Virus record (IMG/VR): IMGVR_UViG_3300042350_003801
Source: a virus
Lineage: Duplodnaviria > Caudoviricetes
Length of the DNA stretch: 64,000 bases
Direction: 5' to 3' (one strand)
Part shown: positions 1,278 to 60,041 of the stretch, in pieces
Position numbering within the stretch: the first letter of the stretch is position 1
How the letters are laid out: each line of letters opens with the position of its first letter
Made by a program: the position numbers and the translations under genes
Notes under the pieces: generated by a model
What the model was told of the DNA's origin: nothing
Database searches by the model: none
The model's input: only the letters and a program-made list of their open reading frames with translations

Positions 1278-1418
1278 TTTTGATGCCGCGGCTAACAGTA
1301 TTTATTCATCGTCCTTAATATGCCGACGATTCAAAAATTCCTCAACTATCGAAATTATTTAAAGACCGTTGTAGATAAAAAATGGAAAACTTAGATGAAA
1401 GGTCCAATAAAAACTTCA

Positions 1419-1516
1419 CTAAATAAAGATGCCTGGTTGGTTGGCGCTTTTCAGGTGGGGGAGAATTTCTTCTCCCCTTATAAAATAAAACTTTACTAAA
1501 TAATATTGCCAACCAA
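1419..1516 (+). promoter_or_regulatory. Dual late-promoter/antisense hairpin module upstream of tnpB
   Basis: CTAAATA 1419-1425; stem CCTG/CAGG with loop GTTGGTTGGCG; hairpin GGGGAGAA..TTCTCCCC 1457-1477; second CTAAATA 1496-1502; complement TGCCAACCAAT 1507-1517. Confidence 0.65.
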
Positions 1517-1528
1517 TAAACAGAGCAG

Positions 1529-2725
1529 ATGCATTTAAAAGCATACAAGTTCAGGATTTATCCAGATAAAGAACAAGAAGTTATATTGGCGAAGACTTTC
1601 GGTTGCTGTAGGTTTGTTTGGAACAAACTCGTTGAAAACTTCAACAGTAACTCCAAGGAATTCATAAACGAAAAAACTTTGAAAGACACTCCCGAATTTG
1701 AATTTCTTAAAGAAGTTTCTGCTGCTGCTATTCAACAAAAAAGAAATGACTTTATTGATTTCAAGAAGCAGTTTTTCAATAAGAAAAGAAAGGCCAAATT
1801 AGGACGACCTTCTTTTAAGAAAAAATCAAATCGTCAGTCTTTTAGACTTCCCAATCAGAAGTTCGTTCTAGACCAAGAAAACTCTTTAGTTAGACTTGAA
1901 AAGATTGGTTGGGTTAAAGTTGTCGTTGACCGTGAAATTCCCGAAGATGCTGACTTTAGGAACATCACTGTTTCTAAAACACCAACCGGTAAATACTTTG
2001 TTTCAATTTTAGTTAAGCAAGAACTCAATCCAATACCCTCAACCGGCAAGGTAGTAGGTATTGATTTGGGCATTAAAGACTTGTTCATTCTTTCAAACGG
2101 ACAAGCAATTAACAATCCTAAATGGTTTCGCAAGAACCAAGCGAAACTCAAAAAAGCCCAGAAGCATTTAAGTAGGAAAAAGAAGGGAAGTAATCGTTAC
2201 ATTAAGCAACGAATTAAAGTTGCTAAAGTACACGAATACATTACAAACAGTAGAACTTACTTTCTTCATAACGTGTCTACTGCTTTAGTGAACACTTTTG
2301 ACTTGATAGTTCTTGAAGATTTAAACGTTTCTGGAATGCTGAAGAACCGCAAGTTGTCTAAATCAATCTCGGATGCTTCTTGGTCTACTTTTGTGTCTAT
2401 GCTGGAATACAAGTGTAACTGGTATGGAAAATTGTTGGTTAAAATTAACCGTTTCTTTCCGTCAAGTAAGACTTGTAGTTCTTGTGGTTACAAGAAAGAC
2501 AAAATGCCTCTTTCGGTTAGAGAATGGACTTGTCCATCTTGTGGTTGTCAACACGATAGAGACTTGAATGCCTCTATTAATATTTTAAAGGAAGGTTGGA
2601 GAAATCTAACCGACCGAGAACTTTCATCGGCGGAGTACGTCGATTACGGACGTGGAGCGGAATTAAGACTGAATGGTAATTCACATCATTTAGCATCTGC
2701 TATGAAGCGTCTAGAGAACCAATAG
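1529..2725 (+). CDS. tnpB: RNA-guided endonuclease TnpB (OrfB)
   Basis: N-terminal KAYKFRIYP HTH, RuvC-I GIDLG, RuvC-II IVLEDL, Zn finger CSSC..CPSC, RuvC-III DRDLNASINI; all catalytic acidic residues present. Confidence 0.95.
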   Translation: MHLKAYKFRIYPDKEQEVILAKTFGCCRFVWNKLVENFNSNSKEFINEKTLKDTPEFEFLKEVSAAAIQQKRNDFIDFKKQFFNKKRKAKLGRPSFKKKSNRQSFRLPNQKFVLDQENSLVRLEKIGWVKVVVDREIPEDADFRNITVSKTPTGKYFVSILVKQELNPIPSTGKVVGIDLGIKDLFILSNGQAINNPKWFRKNQAKLKKAQKHLSRKKKGSNRYIKQRIKVAKVHEYITNSRTYFLHNVSTALVNTFDLIVLEDLNVSGMLKNRKLSKSISDASWSTFVSMLEYKCNWYGKLLVKINRFFPSSKTCSSCGYKKDKMPLSVREWTCPSCGCQHDRDLNASINILKEGWRNLTDRELSSAEYVDYGRGAELRLNGNSHHLASAMKRLENQ

Positions 2726-2774
2726 AGTTTTTTGACTTTATTAGTTTTTATTACTATTTAACTGGTTCGGGAAT
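2626..2774 (+). ncRNA. TnpB omegaRNA (reRNA) scaffold plus predicted 20-nt guide (2755-2774, TATTTAACTGGTTCGGGAAT)
   Basis: Overlaps the tnpB 3' end as is typical for omegaRNAs; stems ATCGGCG/CGTCGAT and AATAGAGTT/GACTTTATT; conserved with the copy at 34635-34793 up to TTAC(TAT); true 5' end probably further upstream. Confidence 0.75.
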
Positions 2775-2960
2775 GATAGAATTAGAAAGAATGGCTTCAA
2801 GAACATCATTAATCTTAGAAACCAGTAGAAACATTAAATGCAATGGAAGAAGAATAATAATTCTAAGAATCAGATAATGGTAGCGAATATGAATAGTGTA
2901 GCCGGGAAATTTTTGATACTTTGCTTTCATCTTGTTGTCAATGAACTTAAAGGGATTCAT
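2754..2960 (-). CDS. Small hypothetical membrane protein; stop codon supplied by the TnpB element end
   Basis: 68 aa with hydrophobic stretch; TAG at 2754-2756 straddles the element junction. Confidence 0.6.
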   Translation of the reverse strand: MNPFKFIDNKMKAKYQKFPGYTIHIRYHYLILRIIILLPLHLMFLLVSKINDVLEAILSNSIIPEPVK

Positions 2961-6727: not shown

Positions 6728-7759
6728 TTAAACTCCAGTAAAATAAGAAATAATTTCGTAGTGGTCTTCAAAAGTCTGGGAGGAATCTACTTGAGAAAGG
6801 GGAATCCAAGTTGCAGAAGTTGCATCAGAACCTCCCCGGACTTTCGGTAGTTCGCCATCGGGAAGACAAATGTTAAAAGCGTGAGTAATAGTTCTACCTC
6901 TTGAACTACGTTGAATTGCATCAAAAACGCGGGTGTTCTTAATGTTTCCGCGAAGAACAGGAGAAGGAACTTTAAGACCAGTTTCTTCTCGGAGTTCTCT
7001 AATCATTGCATCCTCAAGAGATGCATCACTATTTGCATCCAAGAAGCCTCCTGGAAGTGCAAGCAATCCTCGCCCAGGTTCAGAGCGACGATTGATCATC
7101 AAGATGTGGCCAGATTGAATAACTACTGCATCTACAGTCACAAATGTTGGAGGATAAGGATATGATGCAAATTGTTGCTTATACATTTCCTCAAAGTGTC
7201 TTTCTCGGACAACTTGAGCAAACTCTTCAGTTTTCTTAAACACTTCAAGATATTCTAGAATACGTTGTGGAACCACTCCTTGTATGAAATTAAGATTAGA
7301 ATCATCCCGGAAATACAAATTCCTAATGTTAGTTGCACTCAATTCTTCAACAAGAGGAACCTCAACAAGTTCCCATTGGGGGAACATTTCAAGATAGTAA
7401 GAACTTTCATCTTTTTTGTGACCGATGATAGCCACCTTATCAGTGGGTGCAGTTTCAGCCTTTACGATTTCTTGAACTCGGACTGCCCAGGCGGTGTCAT
7501 TGTATAGACTATCTCGGGTTCCTACGACTACAAAATCCAGTTCTTCTTCGTATCCAAGATTGGATAGAGTAGGAGAAATCATATCATAACGGTCGCAGAG
7601 TGTAAATGGATTCTTATAGGTTCGCGGCTGATGTGCAGAACCGACTACAAGAATAACTTTATCTGCTAGCGCTGCTGCTTGTTTGAAAATTTCTAAGTGT
7701 GCATTGTGAAACGGCTGAAATCTACCGATGAACACGATGGCATCGTATTGTTTGGTCAT
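6728..7759 (-). CDS. nadM: Bifunctional NMN adenylyltransferase/Nudix ADP-ribose pyrophosphatase (NadM-Nudix)
   Basis: IGRFQPFHNAH, SATNIR, Nudix box ALPGGF...RELREETG. Confidence 0.95.
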   Translation of the reverse strand: MTKQYDAIVFIGRFQPFHNAHLEIFKQAAALADKVILVVGSAHQPRTYKNPFTLCDRYDMISPTLSNLGYEEELDFVVVGTRDSLYNDTAWAVRVQEIVKAETAPTDKVAIIGHKKDESSYYLEMFPQWELVEVPLVEELSATNIRNLYFRDDSNLNFIQGVVPQRILEYLEVFKKTEEFAQVVRERHFEEMYKQQFASYPYPPTFVTVDAVVIQSGHILMINRRSEPGRGLLALPGGFLDANSDASLEDAMIRELREETGLKVPSPVLRGNIKNTRVFDAIQRSSRGRTITHAFNICLPDGELPKVRGGSDATSATWIPLSQVDSSQTFEDHYEIISYFTGV

Positions 7760-25148: not shown

Positions 25149-25717
25149 AGATAAAACCGGTCATTATTTGTATTTTGATTCCTTATTGGTGGGTATTCCG
25201 CATTTATAAAATCAATATATGGTGACTGGAGTGCCTGCCTCTCAATAAGTAAATCTTGAAATGCTTCGTTTAGGGAATATCTTATTGGAAATTCATTTAA
25301 ATAAAAAGCGCGAGGTGGCGACTCGGTGATCGTTTTCATATTGTCAAAATCAAACATTGGAACAAACAATAAGGCATTACCGTCGTTCAATAACGTGTGC
25401 ATACCGATAAGTTCCCAAGTGGCATACGTGACGACATTCGCGTGATACGCGACAGGGGTGAAATACCTGGCGGCATCCCTGGCGGCATTCCAGGCGGCAA
25501 AATAGGCGGCATTACTGGCAGCCACCTTGTCTGCATGGTCTAAAGCGTAATAGCGGTGGTTAACTTCTTCACATTGTTCTTGCGTAGGATTATCAATAAA
25601 CCACCAGAAGTTAATGACGGTTTCGTAGTTTGGTCCTAGAAAATTCTGTGGATTTGTTAGGGCTTCGGGATTTTGAAGTTCGTTGGAGAAGTTTTGATGG
25701 GCTTTAGAATAATGCAT
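25139..25717 (-). CDS. AAWDAA-repeat family protein, copy 1 (few repeats, extended C-terminus)
   Basis: [35 protein letters not shown]-terminus and [14 protein letters not shown]-terminus shared with three paralogs; start placed at MHYS. Confidence 0.8.
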   Translation of the reverse strand: MHYSKAHQNFSNELQNPEALTNPQNFLGPNYETVINFWWFIDNPTQEQCEEVNHRYYALDHADKVAASNAAYFAAWNAARDAARYFTPVAYHANVVTYATWELIGMHTLLNDGNALLFVPMFDFDNMKTITESPPRAFYLNEFPIRYSLNEAFQDLLIERQALQSPYIDFINAEYPPIRNQNTNNDRFYLQE

Positions 25718-33692: not shown

Positions 33693-34013
33693 TCATTTCT
33701 TTTTGGTTACCTCTTCCTCTTTTTTCTTATTTTGTTTCCAAAGTCTTGGAATAACTCTCCCATTGGAGTAATCAATCTTTTTAATTACTCCCCCGAACCG
33801 GTCGTAATATAAATCAAAAATGTCAACCATTCTTGCTGCTCTACAAATGTCCACTTTTTCTCCTTCTTTATCCTTATAGTGAATTAAATAAGAATCCGAA
33901 GGAAGGTCATATGTATTAACATCTAAAGTGTTGGTAAAGAGAAGTTCGCACCTATAAGAGCTGGGAATGGCTTCTTTTTCTGGTGAAGACCAAGGTTCAA
34001 GAGTTGCGATCAC
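33693..34013 (-). CDS. Conserved cyanophage hypothetical protein
   Basis: LP.DSYLIHY, DICR...VDIFD.YYD motif. Confidence 0.7.
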   Translation of the reverse strand: MIATLEPWSSPEKEAIPSSYRCELLFTNTLDVNTYDLPSDSYLIHYKDKEGEKVDICRAARMVDIFDLYYDRFGGVIKKIDYSNGRVIPRLWKQNKKKEEEVTKKK

Positions 34014-34585
34014 ACTCTATTCCCCCATTGAATCTCGGGAAATGCTTCTTTAACAACATCGAAGGAAATGTTATACTTTTCTTGTAGCTTTTTATCTGTT
34101 ACAAAACAAATAATTTCAGCCTCACGAGGATGTAGACCTTGTAGCAGATTGATGAACATTGTTTCTCGGCGAATTTTAGATAATTCTGCATTTCCACCGT
34201 GAATGAAGTTTCGGAAATTATTATATTCCTTGCGAATAGTTGTTCGGTTATTACTACCATAAGAATCTAACATCTCAGTAGTCTTTAGTTGCTTATTCAT
34301 ACTATCTGAAAAGGTTGTATCATTTCCAACAACACCAATTTCCCTGGCATCGGCAAATGGAACATCCCCCGAGGGAACTGCCGAAACTAAGCTCGGGTCA
34401 TAATTCCAAATGAATACTGCCATCATAGATGGGTCCTTATATTCTTGAAGAACTTCTACTTTTTTGGCATTAGAACGTTGTTTTACAACAAGGTCAAAAA
34501 CTTCAAATAAAAAGGGATTGGCTGGAAGTTTTTTAGGCGTAGTCACCTTCGTCGTCTTCGTCTGTGTCGTCATAATTTTGATCAA
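34010..34585 (-). CDS. Conserved T4-like cyanophage protein; likely start MTTQ lies inside the duplicated segment
   Basis: LPANPFLFEV, RRETMFINLLQGLHP.EAE motifs. Confidence 0.8.
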   Translation of the reverse strand: MIKIMTTQTKTTKVTTPKKLPANPFLFEVFDLVVKQRSNAKKVEVLQEYKDPSMMAVFIWNYDPSLVSAVPSGDVPFADAREIGVVGNDTTFSDSMNKQLKTTEMLDSYGSNNRTTIRKEYNNFRNFIHGGNAELSKIRRETMFINLLQGLHPREAEIICFVTDKKLQEKYNISFDVVKEAFPEIQWGNRV

Positions 34586-34634
34586 ATGTTACTGCGTAAA
34601 GTATGTCTGGTTTGATAGGCCCGTCGCTATTATA
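34533..34634 (-). repeat. Diverged duplicate (old 3' end) of ORF 34839-35060; its first 20 nt are the guide of the orphan omegaRNA
   Basis: Encodes YNSDGPIKPDILYAVTFDQNYDDTDEDDEGDYA* versus YNYDGSIKPDILYAVTFDQNYDDTDEEDYEDA* at 34839-34937. Confidence 0.9.
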
Positions 34635-34793
34635 GTAACAAAAACCAATAAGAGCCAAAAACTCTATTGATTTTATAGACGCTTCATAGCAGATGCTAAA
34701 TGGTAAATAACCTTTTTAGTCTTAATTCCGCTCCACGTCCGTAATCGGTGTACTCCACCGATACCCGAAAAGTATTAACTAGCCGAGCGTCTT
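34615..34793 (-). ncRNA. Orphan (protein-free) TnpB omegaRNA with guide TATAATAGCGACGGGCCTAT
   Basis: Shares CGATTACGGACGTGGAGCGGAATTAAGACT and CATTTAGCATCTGCTATGAAGCGTCTA exactly with 2640-2713; compensatory stem changes; own ATAAATA promoter at 34794-34800. Confidence 0.85.
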
Positions 34794-34838
34794 TATTTAT
34801 CTAACTTTTGTTTGTGGATAACTGAAAATACTCTATTC

Positions 34839-35060
34839 TCAGGCGTCCTCATAATCTTCTTCGTCTGTGTCGTCATAATTTTGGTCAAAAGTTACTGCAT
34901 AAAGGATATCTGGTTTGATAGACCCGTCGTAGTTATACATCTCAGGGTGAAGTCTAGGAGCCGGGGGATAAAACTTGGATGCTATAAATCCAATAATACC
35001 ACCGAGCATTAAAAAGCAAAGAACTAGTAGAACAGTTAGAGCAGTTAGTAGGCTGAACAT
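34839..35060 (-). CDS. Small membrane protein with recoded 3' end
   Basis: N-terminal hydrophobic helix, acidic tail; last 33 codons duplicated downstream. Confidence 0.8.
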   Translation of the reverse strand: MFSLLTALTVLLVLCFLMLGGIIGFIASKFYPPAPRLHPEMYNYDGSIKPDILYAVTFDQNYDDTDEEDYEDA

Positions 35061-35212
35061 TTTAGTTTTCTCCTGAATGTTTTTTAGTTATTTTTAACTC
35101 AATCTTCAGGTGAATTTCTTTTGAAAAAAATGAAACTACCTTAGCAATTCTAAAATTGAATAGTCCCTCCGTTTTTTCCTGCTTTTTACTGCGGAGCATA
35201 AACTCCACACCC

Positions 35213-38650: not shown

Positions 38651-40434
38651 AGTTGGTAATAATCGTCTTTTGGCTTGCTCTTTTGAAGTTTAATGAAATC
38701 TTCCGCCCGGTCGTATGAACGAAAAAATATCCTGTGCGGCGGAAAACTGGTTTCCCAATAATCCCAGTACACAAAAAAACGTTTATACTGTGGAACATAA
38801 ATGGTTAAGCCTTCTATGTCTGTTGTTTTTTTGATTCTGTGACTCATTTTTTGGGTTGCGTTTTTTGGAGGGTATAATCTTTTGCTTTTAAAGCATTCCG
38901 TTTAATATATTTTTCCATATCAATTTTATCTTTAAACCAACAAGTCTTCTTTTCGCCCCTATCTGAATGTTGCAGCTCAAATGGAAAGCTCAGATGAAAA
39001 GGCTTTGCATTCGGCTGTTCAACTGGTAGCGGGGCATTTGCAGGAGGATTTACCTTTGTTGTTGCATTGAGATTTCTACGCTTTTTTGCCACTTTCTCGT
39101 CCTGCTTCAAATGCTGCTTTTAACCAAGATAGAAAAACTCTCTCGGCTTCCTTCTTTTGCAGTTCGTCACCATCTTTTAAATAATGGTCACAATCTCCGA
39201 AAAACCTTTCACTCTTAAGAGAGAAATATTCAAGATAATAAAACCATTCGTCAAATGTGCTTTTTGTTTCCATTATCAACCCTCAAAGTCTTTAAATAAT
39301 TTTGATAACGGAGAAATTTTTGAATCGTTGGTTCTACCCCTAGACTCTCACAACAAAAAGTGTAACTAAGGAACTCGAACCAGGGGGCAGTGGAATCAAA
39401 ATCACTCATCATCTTCTTCTTCAGGTTTAAGGTCATAGTAGCACATATCTTCTTCATATCGGTGAAAAATACTACTACACGCCTCAACAAACGAATTTGA
39501 GATTTTCATAACATTCTCGTGACTGTCCTCAAAGTTATTCGTCAAAGAATCAATAAAATCTTCAGAAGGAATTTTAGCAAACAAAAGAGTAAGGGCGGCA
39601 ATCAAATAACCACCAATCCAATGGGCAGGAGAAACATCTCTCATAACTAAGATTCTATCAAAAGTGCTCGGCTCATCTTCTTCTAATTCTTCATCCTCAC
39701 TATAATATGCGATTCTCTGCATTCCGCAGAGCCATACTAATTCCATCATTAGATAGTTTTGCCCGTCGCTATCCAATGGCAATAAGTCTTCTTTTGTTGG
39801 AACCTTTCCACACTGCAAAACCTTAATAATCTCATCTGGAACATCTTCCAGTTCAATGTCTTCATAAAGAGCAGAATCCAGATTATAGCGGCTTTGTAAA
39901 CATTCAATAAACTCAACGGTAAATTCTGATGTGGATTCACTTTCAGCCTTAAGAGAGGCAACCATACTATTCAGTTGGGTAAAATCAAGTTCTTCAGTCA
40001 CAGTTTTGGTTCCTCACTTTTTTTAACATTTTTGACAAGTTCTCTGATAAGGAGACGGTATTCAATTTCCATTCTTAGACGGACTAATGGATTTTTTGGA
40101 TGATTATTCATCAACCACCATAAACCAGCAATCTTAACCCCGAGAAATTTAAGATTAAGAATAATGTATTCGGCAAACCTCGGTTCTATGTAAAGAAGGT
40201 AAAACAAGAAGCCAAAAAAGATTATAAGAGTTTGAAAATAAAGATTCATTTTTTGTGGAGTTTAATTGTTTGCTCTGGGCCAATTTGGACTGGACAATTG
40301 GGAACCGCTTTTCGGAGTTCACGAAAAATATGAACTTTTTGTTTAAGTGATAAGTTAGCAGATTTAACTAATCTTTCAGAAATGTCCACAAGTTGATTGC
40401 AAGTAAGAGTAGTTACAAGTATAAAAGGAAGCAT
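38647..40434 (-). other. Cluster of small hypothetical ORFs (38647-38847, 38844-39110, 39076-39279, 39402-40001, 39998-40249, 40246-40434)
   Basis: Overlapping start/stop chain on the minus strand. Confidence 0.65.
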
Positions 40435-41226: not shown

Positions 41227-41470
41227 CTTTAAGTTCGGTAATTTCTTCCTGAATCCGACAATGGAGTTCTTTTAGTTGAGTTGTAGAAACATCATAGTCG
41301 TCAAACTCATTATACTTTTTAATTGACTTAATTGCCACGGAAAGGCAATAATCAAGATTTTGGAGGTCGTTCAAATTAAGATTCATAGTTCTTTCTTAAT
41401 GAAGAGTTGATGGTTACACCCTACTAGATTTCGCTGGGTTGTGGGTATTTAGTGGACGGTTTGGGTACTG

Positions 41471-42001
41471 TCACAAGTCGTTAAAAAGAGGAACGAACAA
41501 CAAAGTCTTACCGTCGTTCAATAAGGTATGCATACCAATTAGTTCATAAGTGGCATCACTGGCGGCATCCCAGGCGGCATCCCAGGCGGCATCCCAGGCG
41601 GCATCCCAGGCGGCATTCCCGGCGGCATCCCTGGCGGCATCCCAGGCGGCATTCCCGGCGGCATCCCTGGCGGCATCCCAGGCGGCATTCCCGGCGGCAT
41701 CCCTGGCGGCATCCCAGGCGGCATTCCCGGCGGCATATCCGGCGGCATATCCGGCGGCAGCCCCGGCGGCAGCCCCGGCGGCATTCCGGGCGGCAGACCA
41801 GGCGGCATTCCCGGCGGCGGAATCTAGGGCGCGGTAGCGGCGGGCAACCTCTTCCCATTGGTCAGCGGTAAGACTATCCATAAACCGCCAGAAGTTCAAG
41901 ACGGTTTCGTAGTTTGGTCCTAGAAAGTCTTGTGGGTTAGTAAGAACTTCTGGATTTTCTAGTTCGTTGGCGAAATTTTGATGGGCTTTGGAGTAATTCA
42001 T
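41471..42001 (-). CDS. AAWDAA-repeat family protein, copy 2 (longest repeat tract)
   Basis: Conserved ends; about 22 units of 12-nt GCCGCC(T/A/G)GG(G/A/T)AT at about 41550-41820. Confidence 0.85.
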
Positions 42002-48579: not shown

Positions 48580-49368
48580 TTATATTGTCTTCCAGGACTC
48601 CCTATATATTCCGGTTGAATCTGCTTCCAGCATAGACTTTCCGAACCACAGTTTAGGTGCAACAGTCTTTTTGCTATTTGCCAAATAACTTCCCCACCAC
48701 GAAAAAGAAGAGTTGCAGATAATATGATAAGAACACATACTCTGCAGACATAAATCAACCGCTGTTGTATTATTTTCCGAAATCAAAAATCTATCAACCC
48801 CAAAGAGTTCCTGTTCATAGCACCATTGATGGTCATCCGAAAATACAATAACAGGTAAAGAAGAGTCAAAATGCTTCAAGGCATCTTCATAATAAGACAT
48901 TGGCTGAAGAGGGTGGTTAGGATTATTAACATAGTCACACCTTCGGATGTGTAAAGAGATGTATTCTTCATTGCCTAGAAGATTTCTACAAAGACCTTGA
49001 ATTTCTTCAGAGAACGTAAAGTCTTTTCTAATTTCCTCTTCAATATGTTTGAAGTAGTTCTCGTTTTGAAAGTAGCCAAGAAGATTGGTATTATCTGGGC
49101 AATTGTCAAACAGATTTTGGTCAAAGTTAAATGTTGACTCAGTAACCGTTTGATAATCAGTGATACTATATTTTACTCCGCTAAATTGAAAAGTGTTGTA
49201 AATATTGGCATCAGAGTGTCTGACGTTTAAATCAGTTTGTCCTGCAACATTTGGAGATGGAATACAAAAGTCAAATCCTCTATTTCTTGCAATACCCCTA
49301 AGAGATGCATACTGAAACATCTGATTGCCGAGTCTTCCAAGATTTGCTAAATTGTTAAATGAAATCAT
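48580..49368 (-). CDS. Glycosyltransferase family 11 (alpha-1,2-fucosyltransferase-like)
   Basis: GRLGNQMFQYA, GYFQ, SLHIRRCDY, FSDD, NSSFSWWG. Confidence 0.92.
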   Translation of the reverse strand: MISFNNLANLGRLGNQMFQYASLRGIARNRGFDFCIPSPNVAGQTDLNVRHSDANIYNTFQFSGVKYSITDYQTVTESTFNFDQNLFDNCPDNTNLLGYFQNENYFKHIEEEIRKDFTFSEEIQGLCRNLLGNEEYISLHIRRCDYVNNPNHPLQPMSYYEDALKHFDSSLPVIVFSDDHQWCYEQELFGVDRFLISENNTTAVDLCLQSMCSYHIICNSSFSWWGSYLANSKKTVAPKLWFGKSMLEADSTGIYRESWKTI

Positions 49369-49808
49369 AAGTCGTTAAAAAGAGGAACAAACAATAAGTC
49401 CTTACCATCGTCCAAAAGCGTGTGCATACAAATTAATTCATAAGTTGCATCACTGGCGGCATCCCTGGCGGCAAACCCGGCGGTGTCCCTGGCGGCATCA
49501 CTGGCGGCATCACTGGCCGCCCGCCAGGCGGCCGTGGCGGCAGCATCAGCGTCAGCTCCGGCGGCATCCCAGGCGGCATCCCAGGCGGCATTCCAGGCGG
49601 CATCCCTGGCGGCAACCCTGGCGGCAAGGGCTAGGGCACGGTAACGGCGAGCAACTTCATTCCATTGGTGTCTCGTAAGACCGTCCATATACAACCAGAA
49701 ATTCAGGACGGTTTCGTAGTTTGGTCCTAAAAAGTCTTGTGGATTTGTTGGGGCTTCAAGGTTTTGAAGGCGGTTGGAGAACTTTTGATGGGCTTTTGAG
49801 TGATTCAT
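49365..49808 (-). CDS. AAWDAA-repeat family protein, copy 3
   Basis: Conserved ends plus GC-rich 12-nt repeat tract at about 49450-49625. Confidence 0.85.
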
Positions 49809-50927: not shown

Positions 50928-51548
50928 TCATAAGTATTCGGGTGGGTCATATGGTTCCTGGAACATTTCTCGGGAGCGCATTTTTATTGCTCTTTGAGTT
51001 ATTGCATCTATAGAGGAATCTTCAACAAATCTGATTGCTAAAAGAAGTTCCCCTTCTTGTATTGTATTTAGTTCGGGATGACTGCTACTCTTAAATGGAA
51101 TCCAACTTGAACTAAAAATCATTTTTTGTTGAAGAACATCTCCATTGGGTCTATTCCGGTTTTTAAAATTGCACAAGCTCTTTTATAAAACTGACAATCT
51201 GTTTTTCCAGATTCTTCTAAAACGTCTTTAATCTTTTGCCAGTTTTGGCGGGTATGGTCATCCATTTGATTAGTGCATTGAGTTAATTTTATCTTCATAT
51301 TCTTGAAAAATATTCATTTCCCAATAATCAAACTCCTCGTGAATTTTATATACTGCATCCTTGTATGCTTTTTCAGTAAGACAACCAGGATTTTGATAGA
51401 GGACTTTCAGTTGTTCAAGAGCATTTTGAAGGCCTTGAATATATTCAAAACGATATTTGCGGTCATTATATTGCTCTAAGGTCTCGGTTACCCCATCTGG
51501 GTATTGAAACGTTTCTGTTTGAGAATTAAATGTAATTTGGTCAGTCAT
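50928..51548 (-). other. Two small hypothetical ORFs (50928-51176, 51270-51548)
   Basis: ORF track, co-oriented. Confidence 0.6.
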
Positions 51549-51943
51549 AAGTCGTTAAAAAGAGGAACAAACAATAAGTCCTTACCATCGTCCAAAAGCG
51601 TGTGCATACCCATTAGTTCATAAGTGGCATACCCGGCGGCATTCCAGGCGGCATTCCTGGCGGCATTCCTGGCGGCATTCCAGGCGGCATACCCGGCGGC
51701 AGACATGGCGGCAGACATGGCGGCAGCCCCGGCGGCAGACCCGGCGGCAGACCTGGCGGCATCGTCTAGGGCATGATAACGGCGGGCAACTTCATTCCAT
51801 TGGTTCTCGGTAAGACCATCAATAAACCACCAGAAGTTAATGACGGTTTCGTAGTTTGGTCCTAGAAAATTCTGTGGATTTGTTAGGGCTTCAGGGTTTT
51901 GAAGGCCGTTGGAGAAGTTTTGATGTGCTTTAGAATAATGCAT
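51545..51943 (-). CDS. AAWDAA-repeat family protein, copy 4 (start moved to MHYS)
   Basis: Conserved ends; repeat tract about 51630-51762; promoter (TG-C-TATTGT at 51968-51976) lies inside the longer ORF-track call. Confidence 0.85.
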
Positions 51944-58691: not shown

Positions 58692-58764
58692 CGACCAATA
58701 GGAGATTTGAACTCCTGTAACCTACTAGACAGGTAGGTGTCCTAGACCACTAGACGAATTGGCC
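58692..58764 (-). tRNA. trnD: tRNA-Asp(GUC)
   Basis: Acceptor GGCCAAT/ATTGGTC+G73; anticodon stem CCTAC/GTAGG with loop CTGTCTA; T-loop TTCAAAT. Confidence 0.9.
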
Positions 58765-59214: not shown

Positions 59215-59637
59215 TCACTCTGGTATATTTAAATAATCTTCAGCCATATGTATTTTTACTTTTTGATTACTTTTCGGTTTGGATAATCTCAGTCCAAGCC
59301 ATTTTTCACACTTGTTGGGGTTAACATAATAGCATTTATCCGTATCTGGACAATAAATGCACATTAAATCTAATTCATTTTTATCGTAATCTTTATGATG
59401 TGAGCCATTTCTGTCGGCCCAAGATGTTCCAAAACGTACATTAATTACGTTATTATTAGCCGCTCTATATTTAACTTGAACTCTTTTAAAAATGCCGTCT
59501 TTATACGCGACTAAATCAAAAGATTCGTGCTCTGTATGCGGGGTAAGAATTAAATAACCCTTTTCATACAAATCAAGTTGGGCTTTTAACACACCAAGGT
59601 CGCCTTTATTTTTAGTATGGTGATACCTCATACTCAT
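59215..59637 (-). CDS. Free-standing PD-(D/E)xK homing endonuclease, I-Ssp6803I-like
   Basis: TK.KGD.....A...L...G..IL.P.....FDLV...G.F.RVQVK; D....Y matches the I-Ssp6803I/PDDEXK_5 pattern as I recall it; AAGGAG RBS. Confidence 0.82.
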   Translation of the reverse strand: MSMRYHHTKNKGDLGVLKAQLDLYEKGYLILTPHTEHESFDLVAYKDGIFKRVQVKYRAANNNVINVRFGTSWADRNGSHHKDYDKNELDLMCIYCPDTDKCYYVNPNKCEKWLGLRLSKPKSNQKVKIHMAEDYLNIPE

Positions 59638-59756: not shown

Positions 59757-60041
59757 CGAGAACGGCGTGACTCGAACACGCGACTTACTGCTTAGCTTAC
59801 CACTACGGATTTCCCCGCCATTTCTGTTTGTGGTCTGGACCATCTCTTCATCTTATCTTACGACTTAGATGCTTCCCGTATGGCCTCTACACGTTCAGGA
59901 TTTCTCCCGCTTCGCTCGGGATTGCCATAGTCTTACGACTTTAGGGTTCCCCGAATTTGAGAAGTTACATTTATGAAGTTTCCCTCGTAAAGCTCCTATT
60001 TTCGAAGGCAGTTGTTCTAAATCCAACTGAACTACGTTCCC
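59757..60041 (-). tRNA. trnR: tRNA-Arg(UCU) split by a group I intron (exons 60005-60041 and 59757-59795)
   Basis: Spliced 76-nt cloverleaf GGGAACG..ACTGC-CTT|CTAA-GCAGT..GCGTG-TTCGAGT-CACGC-CGTTCTC-G; A20 Arg identity element. Confidence 0.88.
59796..60004 (-). mobile_element. Group I intron (IC3-like), 209 nt, no internal ORF
   Basis: P1 CUU/GAG with U-G at the splice site; P2 GAAA loop; CTCAAATTCGGGGAACCCT, GGCAATCCCGAGC, GTGTAGAGGCC..CGGGAAGC, AAGAGATGGTCCAG core elements resembling the cyanobacterial trnL intron; terminal G. Confidence 0.88.

Follow-up and report, generated by a model that had tools for sequence, protein, structure and literature searches.

The DNA stretch IMGVR_UViG_3300042350_003801, analysed here over its whole length of 64,000 nucleotides and referred to as the window, belongs to a T4-like myovirus of lake water, of the cyanophage type. 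It contains a gene for TnpB, the ancestor of Cas12, and, 32 kb from this gene, a short protein-free cassette on the minus strand which carries a second copy of the tnpB element's omegaRNA scaffold. The cassette lies between two small genes, called gene A and gene B. Gene A ends just upstream of the cassette, and an older version of the gene A 3' end is found past it, where it also contains the start of gene B. The features of both loci are collected in Table 1. We consider whether this orphan cassette may be a mobile element that borrows TnpB in trans.

Table 1. Features of the cassette locus and of the tnpB element, numbered as in the window.
Feature	Position	Strand	Remarks
Orphan omegaRNA scaffold, five helices	34632..34762	-	Covariance model 143.6 bits; without TnpB reading frame
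Left-end remnant with promoter-like box GATAAATAAAG and ~30-nt leader	34763..34817	-	Aligns to 1404-1460 and to relatives' left ends
Guide segment AATAGCGACGGGCCTATCAA, starting AATAGCGACGGG...	34612..34631	-	First 20 nt past the right end
Spacer, gene A stop codon to left-end remnant	34818..34838	-	68% identical to related contig L157; neutral-like
Gene A, 73 aa, small membrane-type protein with acidic tail	34839..35060	-	
Resident 'new' gene A 3' end	34839-34934	-	EDYEDA-type
Old gene A 3' end (..NSDGPIK...DYA*), displaced downstream	34533..34631	-	Contains gene B start from 34573
Gene B (DUF6433)	34010..34573	-	Pfam PF20025; start overlaps old gene A end
Unoccupied site 1	35191..35211	-	16/16 match to L157 site-1 guide; GGTGT instead of GGTAT
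tnpB, 398 aa, ISDra2 TnpB-like	1529..2725	+	Pfam OrfB_IS605, Cas12f1-like_TNB, HTH_OrfB_IS605
tnpB-linked omegaRNA scaffold	2626..2757	+	tnpB 3' end and following 30 nt
Guide of tnpB-linked omegaRNA, TTAACTGGTTCGGGAATGAT	2758-2777	+	First 20 nt past the scaffold
Left end of tnpB element, two CTAAATAA boxes (1419, 1496) around a structured leader	1404..1528	+	
Gene-junction fossil at left flank of tnpB element	1323..1397	+	Inverted repeat I3, 44 nt, 86%

The two scaffold copies (2626-2757 on the plus strand and 34632-34762 on the minus strand) share two exact blocks, of 29 and 27 nt, both of them present twice, where 0 are expected from shuffled sequences. The arms of the scaffold copies, I1 and I2, were recovered by a repeat search at 87-92% identity. 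Relatives of the element were collected from IMG/VR and from metagenomes, giving about 25 close homologues of the window's TnpB (77-91% identity), and a covariance model, R1, was built on 19 family copies of the scaffold. These 19 copies align with 98.7% of cells paired and with compensatory change at four pairs. R1 assigns 152 bits to the tnpB-linked copy and 144 bits to the orphan, and the rest of the 64-kb window reaches at most 16 bits. The scaffold is covered by no family in a scan with Rfam, and it has no match in a collection of phage genomes.

In the orphan a 1-nt deletion leads to a frameshift and a stop codon, which break the tnpB frame. The original prediction, made from the letters of the window, had described a second scaffold copy without tnpB and a TnpB encoded 32 kb away; both are confirmed, the TnpB being intact-looking in its catalytic residues. 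Its compensatory changes in stem 1 are also present, two compensatory pairs differing between the orphan and the tnpB-linked copy. As evidence for selection on the orphan these changes are weakened, the same variant being found in the tnpB-linked copies of contigs L114 and L015. Because it is present there, the stem-1 variant marks a different parent.

The product of tnpB aligns to the structures of ISDra2 TnpB (PDB 8EXA/8BF8) with E = 3e-74. The D/E/D triad of RuvC is kept (GIDLG, LEDL and HDRD in the ISDra2-type alignment) together with the zinc finger, and from these residues the protein looks catalytically intact and potentially active. The leader of the gene (1404-1528, plus strand) has a fold with z = -3.8, in which the 3' arm of a long-range stem abuts the start codon. 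The arms of this stem covary among the relatives L003, L005 and L006, and the leader looks like a translational control element in the style of IS200 leaders. Relatives have a common left end, comprised of CCAATAAAAAC, a CTAAATAA box, the covarying long-range stem around a GC hairpin, a second box and the start codon. The fossil at the left flank of the window's element (1323-1397, plus strand) is a copy of the 3' end of a small gene 38 kb away (39251-39407, minus strand) and of the start of the next gene. This suggests that the tnpB element formerly lay at the 39251-39407 junction, or that flanks were swapped between copies by recombination. A search for an empty site of this tnpB copy turned up no relatives of the gene next to it. 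No tnpA open reading frame (ORF) adjoins any of the family copies examined. In its protein, its scaffold with a sharp right-end boundary and its TAM (target-adjacent motif, below) the element agrees with the tnpB-only, IS1341-like type of the IS200/IS605 family.

The orphan retains the first ~55 nt of the element's left end, box 1 included, and these are joined straight to the first scaffold stem; the deletion junction between left-end remnant and scaffold reads ..CTTTTCGGGT followed directly by ATCGG. It is without the left tip (~40 nt) and the left-end hairpin of full-length copies, and its right end is intact. Because the left end with box 1 is fused to the scaffold, the cassette is, as judged from its sequence, an internal-deletion mini-element made up of a left-end remnant, a scaffold and a right end. 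The ATAAATA box at 34794-34800, originally read as the cassette's own late promoter, is present and falls inside the left-end remnant. It is the left-end box of the parent element, and its activity as a promoter is presumed. A sigma-70-like pair (TTGGCT-18-TATAAT, 34629-34658 on the minus strand) covers the right end and the first guide bases and faces gene B; sigma-70-like matches are about as many in the region as chance would give.

The right end is TTACTAT in 15/19 family copies, and all 19 have a common CTAT terminus, beyond which the flanks are unrelated. In the orphan TTACTAT is found at 34638-34632 (minus strand), and since this is the right end of the family the guide is placed at 34631-34612. 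The corresponding stretch of the resident gene A end (34934-34915) has mismatches at guide positions 3, 4, 5 and 13 and is preceded by TGTAT (34939-34935). The original prediction had the guide start at TAT, with AGATG before the resident copy as the target-adjacent motif (TAM). Its four mismatches stand, in a register shifted by 3 nt; AGATG is rejected in favour of TGTAT, given the TTACTAT right end and the presence of NGTAT at six empty sites.

NGTAT lies directly 5' of the guide match at six independent pairs of element and empty allele. These are the gene A/B site (TGTAT), a second site before a small gene Z (GGTAT), two positions in the 3' end of the clamp-loader gene gp44 (TGTAT at each), the L109 site (TGTAT) and the L126 site (AGTAT), where the empty allele of L028 matches 24/24 target bases. 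The junction in L113/L132, 16 nt deeper in gp44 at a second TGTAT, is better read as a separate insertion. Because six unoccupied alleles show NGTAT before the guide match, the predicted TAM of the family is NGTAT. Two sites deviate from it, those of L008 (TATGT) and L108 (AATAG). The variants GTGT, GTAC and GCAT recur at the TAM position across several target sites. The element end, ACTAT, is a near-copy of NGTAT. The old copy of the gene A end lies behind this ACTAT, not NGTAT, and the sole perfect match of the guide in the genome is its own template, without a TAM.

The cassette is flanked by a direct repeat (34552-34634 and 34855-34937) of 83 nt, 88% identical. Its upstream copy is the end of gene A and its downstream copy continues into gene B, as it does in the cassette-free contigs L028 and L026. 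This site, called site 2, is empty in L028, L026, L155, L158, L159, L162 and L163, where gene A overlaps gene B, and the window's downstream copy resembles the syntenic gene A ends of cassette-free relatives. The repeat and these relatives bear out the proposal that an older gene A end, carrying the start of gene B, lies behind the scaffold. The resident EDYEDA-type end is also found in the cassette-free phages L155, L159, L162 and L163. De novo recoding of the resident gene end, as first proposed, is therefore rejected: the two gene A ends look like natural alleles of different lineages rather than an engineered recoding, and the effect of the seed mismatches should be the same. Of the self-immunity claimed for the cassette, what stands, at the level of sequence, is that the resident copy is mismatched in the seed and the old copy has no TAM; a bespoke recoding does not. 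Residue 44 of gene A is P, S, Y or R within the otherwise invariant PRLHPEMYN-x-DGSI (proteins P0001-P0020), and its codon corresponds to guide positions 4-6, close after the TAM. The cassette-free L158 matches the site-2 guide of L157 at 14/14 first positions and has TGTAT before it. Empty alleles at site 2, which were expected, thus exist, and none of them matches the window's guide exactly; a search of IMG/VR for the exact empty allele gave two unrelated chance hits.

Further orphans, for which a covariance-model search had been suggested, were found with R1: the identical junction of left end and scaffold occurs in four more contigs (L157, L152, L153 and L154). L157 contains two orphans, one of them orthologous to that of the window at the gene A/B site and the other 450 nt upstream at site 1. 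In L152, L153 and L154 only the site-1 orphan is present, and in the window only the one at site 2. Site 1 has the small gene Z duplicated in full; a diverged copy, Z', lies upstream with GGCAT at the TAM position or with seed mismatches, and the old Z lies past the right end. In one lake metagenome run the dominant relative, at ~650x, carries both orphans, and in the same run the scaffold core is ~13 times deeper than the flanks and is joined to several different right-end flanks. Because further orphans exist, several guides can be in play. The multi-guide arrangement of the original prediction is thus upheld as far as the orphans go, L157 having two, and homing by these guides would be a further step.

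The same layout is seen with a complete gene in relatives in which an entire tnpB separates gp44 from gp62: upstream is a new gp44 end, with TGTGT, and the old end lies past the right end. The diverged duplications range from ~30 nt (the gp44/gp62 tnpB copy, L001/L002) to 150 nt, with 100-150 nt in copies of the orphan lineage. The left end is truncated in all of the duplication-flanked copies, and no duplication is seen with full-length copies in which the left tip is intact. Insertion without target duplication therefore holds for copies with an intact left end and fails for the orphan lineage and the gp44/gp62 copy.

Two other contigs contain derivatives or relatives of the element. In L108 a scaffold-only copy (6970-7116), without left end and without tnpB, lies between a native CTAAATAG box and a gene leader. 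It was tried as a second orphan with a left-end promoter and rejected, as its box natively promotes the downstream gene and the target has no NGTAT; it remains an independent scaffold-only copy. L151 (428-1615, record G001) encodes a second, distant TnpB of 395 aa with a GC-richer scaffold, adjoining a metallophosphoesterase gene. This distant TnpB shares its phage contig with a copy of the family.

The structure of the orphan RNA is retained. In six orphans and the tnpB-linked copy of the window 97.5% of pair cells are standard, single changes are wobble-compatible, and one A-U pair has become C-G by a compensatory double change within the orphan lineage, a better sign of selection than the stem-1 changes. 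Across 17 tnpB-linked copies 65 columns of the scaffold are without change; the orphans, which have lost protein coding, are changed at 2-4 of these (3/65 in the window). When the cassette of the window is compared to the orthologous one of L157, the box and leader are 95% and the scaffold 85.5% identical, the adjacent spacer is 68% identical and the old copy, in its non-coding part, 69%. That the first 14 nt of the site-1 guides are conserved was dropped as a sign of guide selection, since gene Z has its ribosome-binding site and start codon there. At site 2 L157 has no unique change in 14 nt of its guide and ~9 in the 32 nt that follow (p about 0.03), which weakly suggests selection on the guide.

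Patterns of identity between contigs are consistent with movement of the site-1 cassette. Z' and the orphan are 100% and 99.4% identical between L157 and L152, in flanks of 85-89% identity. L157 and L153 are 90-100% identical up to the right end and 72-85% identical from the guide on, and this breakpoint is where a conversion tract initiated by TnpB should end.

Within the phage collection the DNA of the window matches Synechococcus myophages only, at 64-71%, and the public runs that contain the cassette region are lake-water metagenomes. Neighbouring genes in the window encode a glutaredoxin, an S-adenosylmethionine (AdoMet) decarboxylase and the DUF6433 protein. A second kind of selfish element is present in the window, a group I intron (59814-60014, minus strand; Rfam, 66 bits). 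It is accompanied by an ORF of 140 aa (59215-59637, minus strand), which could be an intron-associated endonuclease, and by a transfer RNA gene (58692-58764, minus strand). Four related repeat blocks with an internal periodicity of 12 nt (25352-25699, 41434-41983, 49364-49790 and 51544-51925) could represent paralogous genes with short tandem repeats.

We hypothesise that 34612-34817 (minus strand) is a tnpB-less miniature of an ISDra2-like family found in freshwater T4-like (cyano)phages. An internal deletion would have taken tnpB and left the left-end box, leader, scaffold, right end and guide. The element would occupy an NGTAT in the 3' part of gene A, with the diverged upstream gene end keeping the gene intact and the old end supplying both the guide and the start of gene B. 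A transcript may be made from the box in late infection, or by read-through from gene A, and TnpB made elsewhere in the genome may bind and trim this orphan RNA. The complex would then cut cassette-free alleles (NGTAT and a matching seed, target AATAGYGACGGG) in co-infecting relatives, and recombinational repair would copy the cassette and the replacement gene end into the cut alleles. The carrier would be spared because its resident copy is mismatched in the seed and its old copy is without a TAM. As for the flanking duplication, its probable origin is an unequal join at short homology, on the left-end side, between two diverged genomes, and such a join might rescue insertions by which a gene or a gene junction would otherwise be broken.

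What the sequences compared show is the cassette's anatomy and family membership, the TAM, the empty alleles, the multiple sites and the pattern of conservation; expression, loading in trans, cleavage and drive are inferred. Homing of the protein-free cassette by a trans-acting TnpB is the best supported reading of these data, unproven and in our judgement somewhat favoured. We are a little less inclined, at slightly under even chances, to the broader view that freshwater T4-like phages harbour a natural split, multi-guide, RNA-guided gene drive, engaged in an arms race with escape by changes of the TAM and seed, which lake metagenomes would make visible.

The main rival is that the cassette is a decaying relic heading for loss, at the degenerative stage of a homing-element life cycle, in which tnpB has been lost by deletion, the RNA is inert, conservation reflects young age or gene conversion, and the box promotes gene B. 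The original prediction had given a decayed element that lost tnpB as its alternative; the cassette is such an element, and the two readings are not mutually exclusive. A number of observations weigh against homing, and other products of decay in the family are among them. L150 has a solo right-end fragment of 47 nt (1501-1547, minus strand) downstream of a gene, with the 3' stem and TTACTAT and without the scaffold core. In L136/L137 a 16-nt scar, AAAACTTTTTGTTACT, ~60 nt upstream of the gp62 start, joins the start of the left end to the right-end tip between the new gp44 end and the old-end remnant, and the element there appears to be almost fully deleted. A 7-nt deletion in L152 (1355-1365) falls exactly at the junction of right end and guide, because of which its guide no longer abuts the TAM in natural targets. 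The guide of the window has a change at position 13 that is unique to it, at an invariant Ser codon, and none of the alleles found is an exact natural target for it; the closest natural allele, in L153/L154, has mismatches at 6, 13, 15 and 18. The window's site-2 cassette is no better conserved against L157 than its flanks are, which gives no indication that it spread recently at site 2, and because mosaicism is general in these phages a conserved cassette block is not proof of drive. The orphan has ~83% column identity to the tnpB-linked scaffold of the window, and its compatibility with TnpB is assumed. The empty allele of the L108 copy (L168/L169) has AATAG before the target, not NGTAT. Among the public runs that contain the cassette region there is no RNA run. 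The promoter activity of the box is taken as an inference because the motif is not significantly enriched in the window (9 found, 5.4 expected); moreover, the insertion severed gene B from upstream transcription, so a promoter would be useful to a relic in any case.

An inert relic does not readily account for scaffold and leader identities of 85-95% between the window and L157 where neutral sequence shows 68-69%, nor for pairing that is kept, with a compensatory change that arose among the orphans. Two sites contain the same mini-element, near-identical across diverged backgrounds, and two independent scaffold-only derivatives (the orphan lineage and L108) start within a few nt of the first stem. 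We consider decay alone to be unlikely, and clearly less so than the two readings that follow. One of these is that the cassette is a transposon of the type of palindrome-associated transposable elements (PATEs) or miniature inverted-repeat transposable elements (MITEs), mobilised by a Y1 TnpA in trans, for example from a host IS200/IS605 element, with the omegaRNA incidental or engaged in restorative homing only. The layout of such elements is indeed seen, with both ends, no ORF and one junction in the window, L157 (twice), L152 and L153. One mini-element occurs at two sites, at six sites NGTAT is followed directly by the right-end junction, as would be expected of TnpA, and PATEs bearing an omegaRNA are known from Geobacillus (PMC10055086). 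However, no tnpA lies beside any family copy examined, the orphan is without the left-end hairpin region and ~40 nt of left tip, and a diverged duplication of 100-150 nt is present at every orphan of the lineage, whereas canonical insertion produces none (PMC8612924). Mobilisation of this kind is in our view improbable.

The cassette might instead be a regulatory RNA or a mobile promoter, serving mainly the late transcription of gene B or as its structured 5' leader, or guiding TnpB to bind DNA without cutting, in the manner of TldR-type repressors. Conservation is highest in the box and leader (95%), the sigma-70-like -35/-10 pair lies at the junction of right end and guide, and the scaffold-only copy of L108 stands behind a native promoter box, with a target that has no TAM. 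Against this, the nuclease motifs of TnpB are kept, the only perfect genomic match of the guide is its own template, without a TAM, and the sigma-70 match is at chance level. Regulation would also leave the conservation of the right end, the NGTAT-adjacent targets and the empty alleles unexplained, and we think it very improbable.

If homing in trans is correct, several protein-free cassettes would depend on one or a few TnpB genes, and each cassette brings a replacement end for the gene that it interrupts. The phages of these lakes would then be a natural system with nuclease and guide on separate loci and with cassettes that carry their own gene repair; occupied and empty alleles coexist in the same lakes. 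Three questions become testable: whether omegaRNA-only elements function in trans, whether TnpB drives horizontal homing between viruses, and how an array-like arrangement of several guides could start to evolve from transposon ends. For biochemistry the family offers a defined TAM (NGTAT), a compact scaffold and natural pairs of guide and target.

The closest characterised system is ISDra2, whose TnpB is a homologous protein with E = 3e-74 (Karvelis 2021, PMC8612924; PDB 8EXA). In both, a scaffold of ~130 nt extends over the tnpB 3' end and right end, and the guide comes from the right-end flank. Both have a 5-nt TAM ending in AT (TTGAT there, NGTAT here), and the element end resembles the TAM without being identical to it; such a near-copy has been seen in characterised IS200/IS605 elements (PMC10055086). 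The phage family differs in having no visible tnpA partner, in its lytic-type phage host and in a scaffold that also occurs without tnpB. Some phage copies are flanked by a diverged target duplication of 100-150 nt, whereas canonical peel-and-paste insertion of IS200/IS605 elements makes no target duplication (PMC8612924).

Protein-free IS200/IS605 derivatives of Geobacillus stearothermophilus encode omegaRNAs, and a need for TnpB in trans, supplied by another element, has been proposed for them (Meers 2023, PMC10055086). These PATE-like mini-elements are similar to the phage cassette in having left and right ends, no ORF and a retained omegaRNA. The Geobacillus PATEs are chromosomal, with intact ends recognised by TnpA, and are mobilised by a resident TnpA. 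In contrast, the phage cassette has a truncated left end and a replacement gene end, and its presumed targets lie in other phage genomes, not on a sister chromosome. A guide RNA system of the TldR type does not fit, as the catalytic motifs of TnpB are present and the guide matches a coding 3' end rather than a promoter. Homing by TnpB is established for the restoration of transposons after excision and has been suggested for plasmids; homing from phage to phage is theoretical (2026 review, PMC13565253). In the literature on phage tnpB genes its role has only been speculated upon.

Intronless homing in T-even phages, by SegF, SegG and MobE, shows a similar organisation (PMC13565253). There too the cassette lies between conserved genes, its target is in cassette-free relatives, and differences in the neighbouring gene protect the carrier; co-conversion of flanking markers in co-infection is a feature of the T-even systems. 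Recognition in the lake phages would be by RNA guide and TAM rather than by protein. As the RNA specificity module is encoded apart from the nuclease gene, a single nuclease could act at several loci.

Mobile endonuclease insertions in the atp6 and cox genes of fungal mitochondria bring a replacement 3' end, and the old end is left downstream as a pseudogene. The order of parts is the same as in the phage cassette: an intact gene with a foreign 3' end, the mobile element, and then the displaced old end. The mitochondrial insertions are protein-guided and belong to organelle genomes, whereas in the phage the displaced end doubles as the template of the guide. Relative to these systems, what is new here is the phage setting, the placement of guide and nuclease on separate loci, the replacement gene ends and the evidence from populations.

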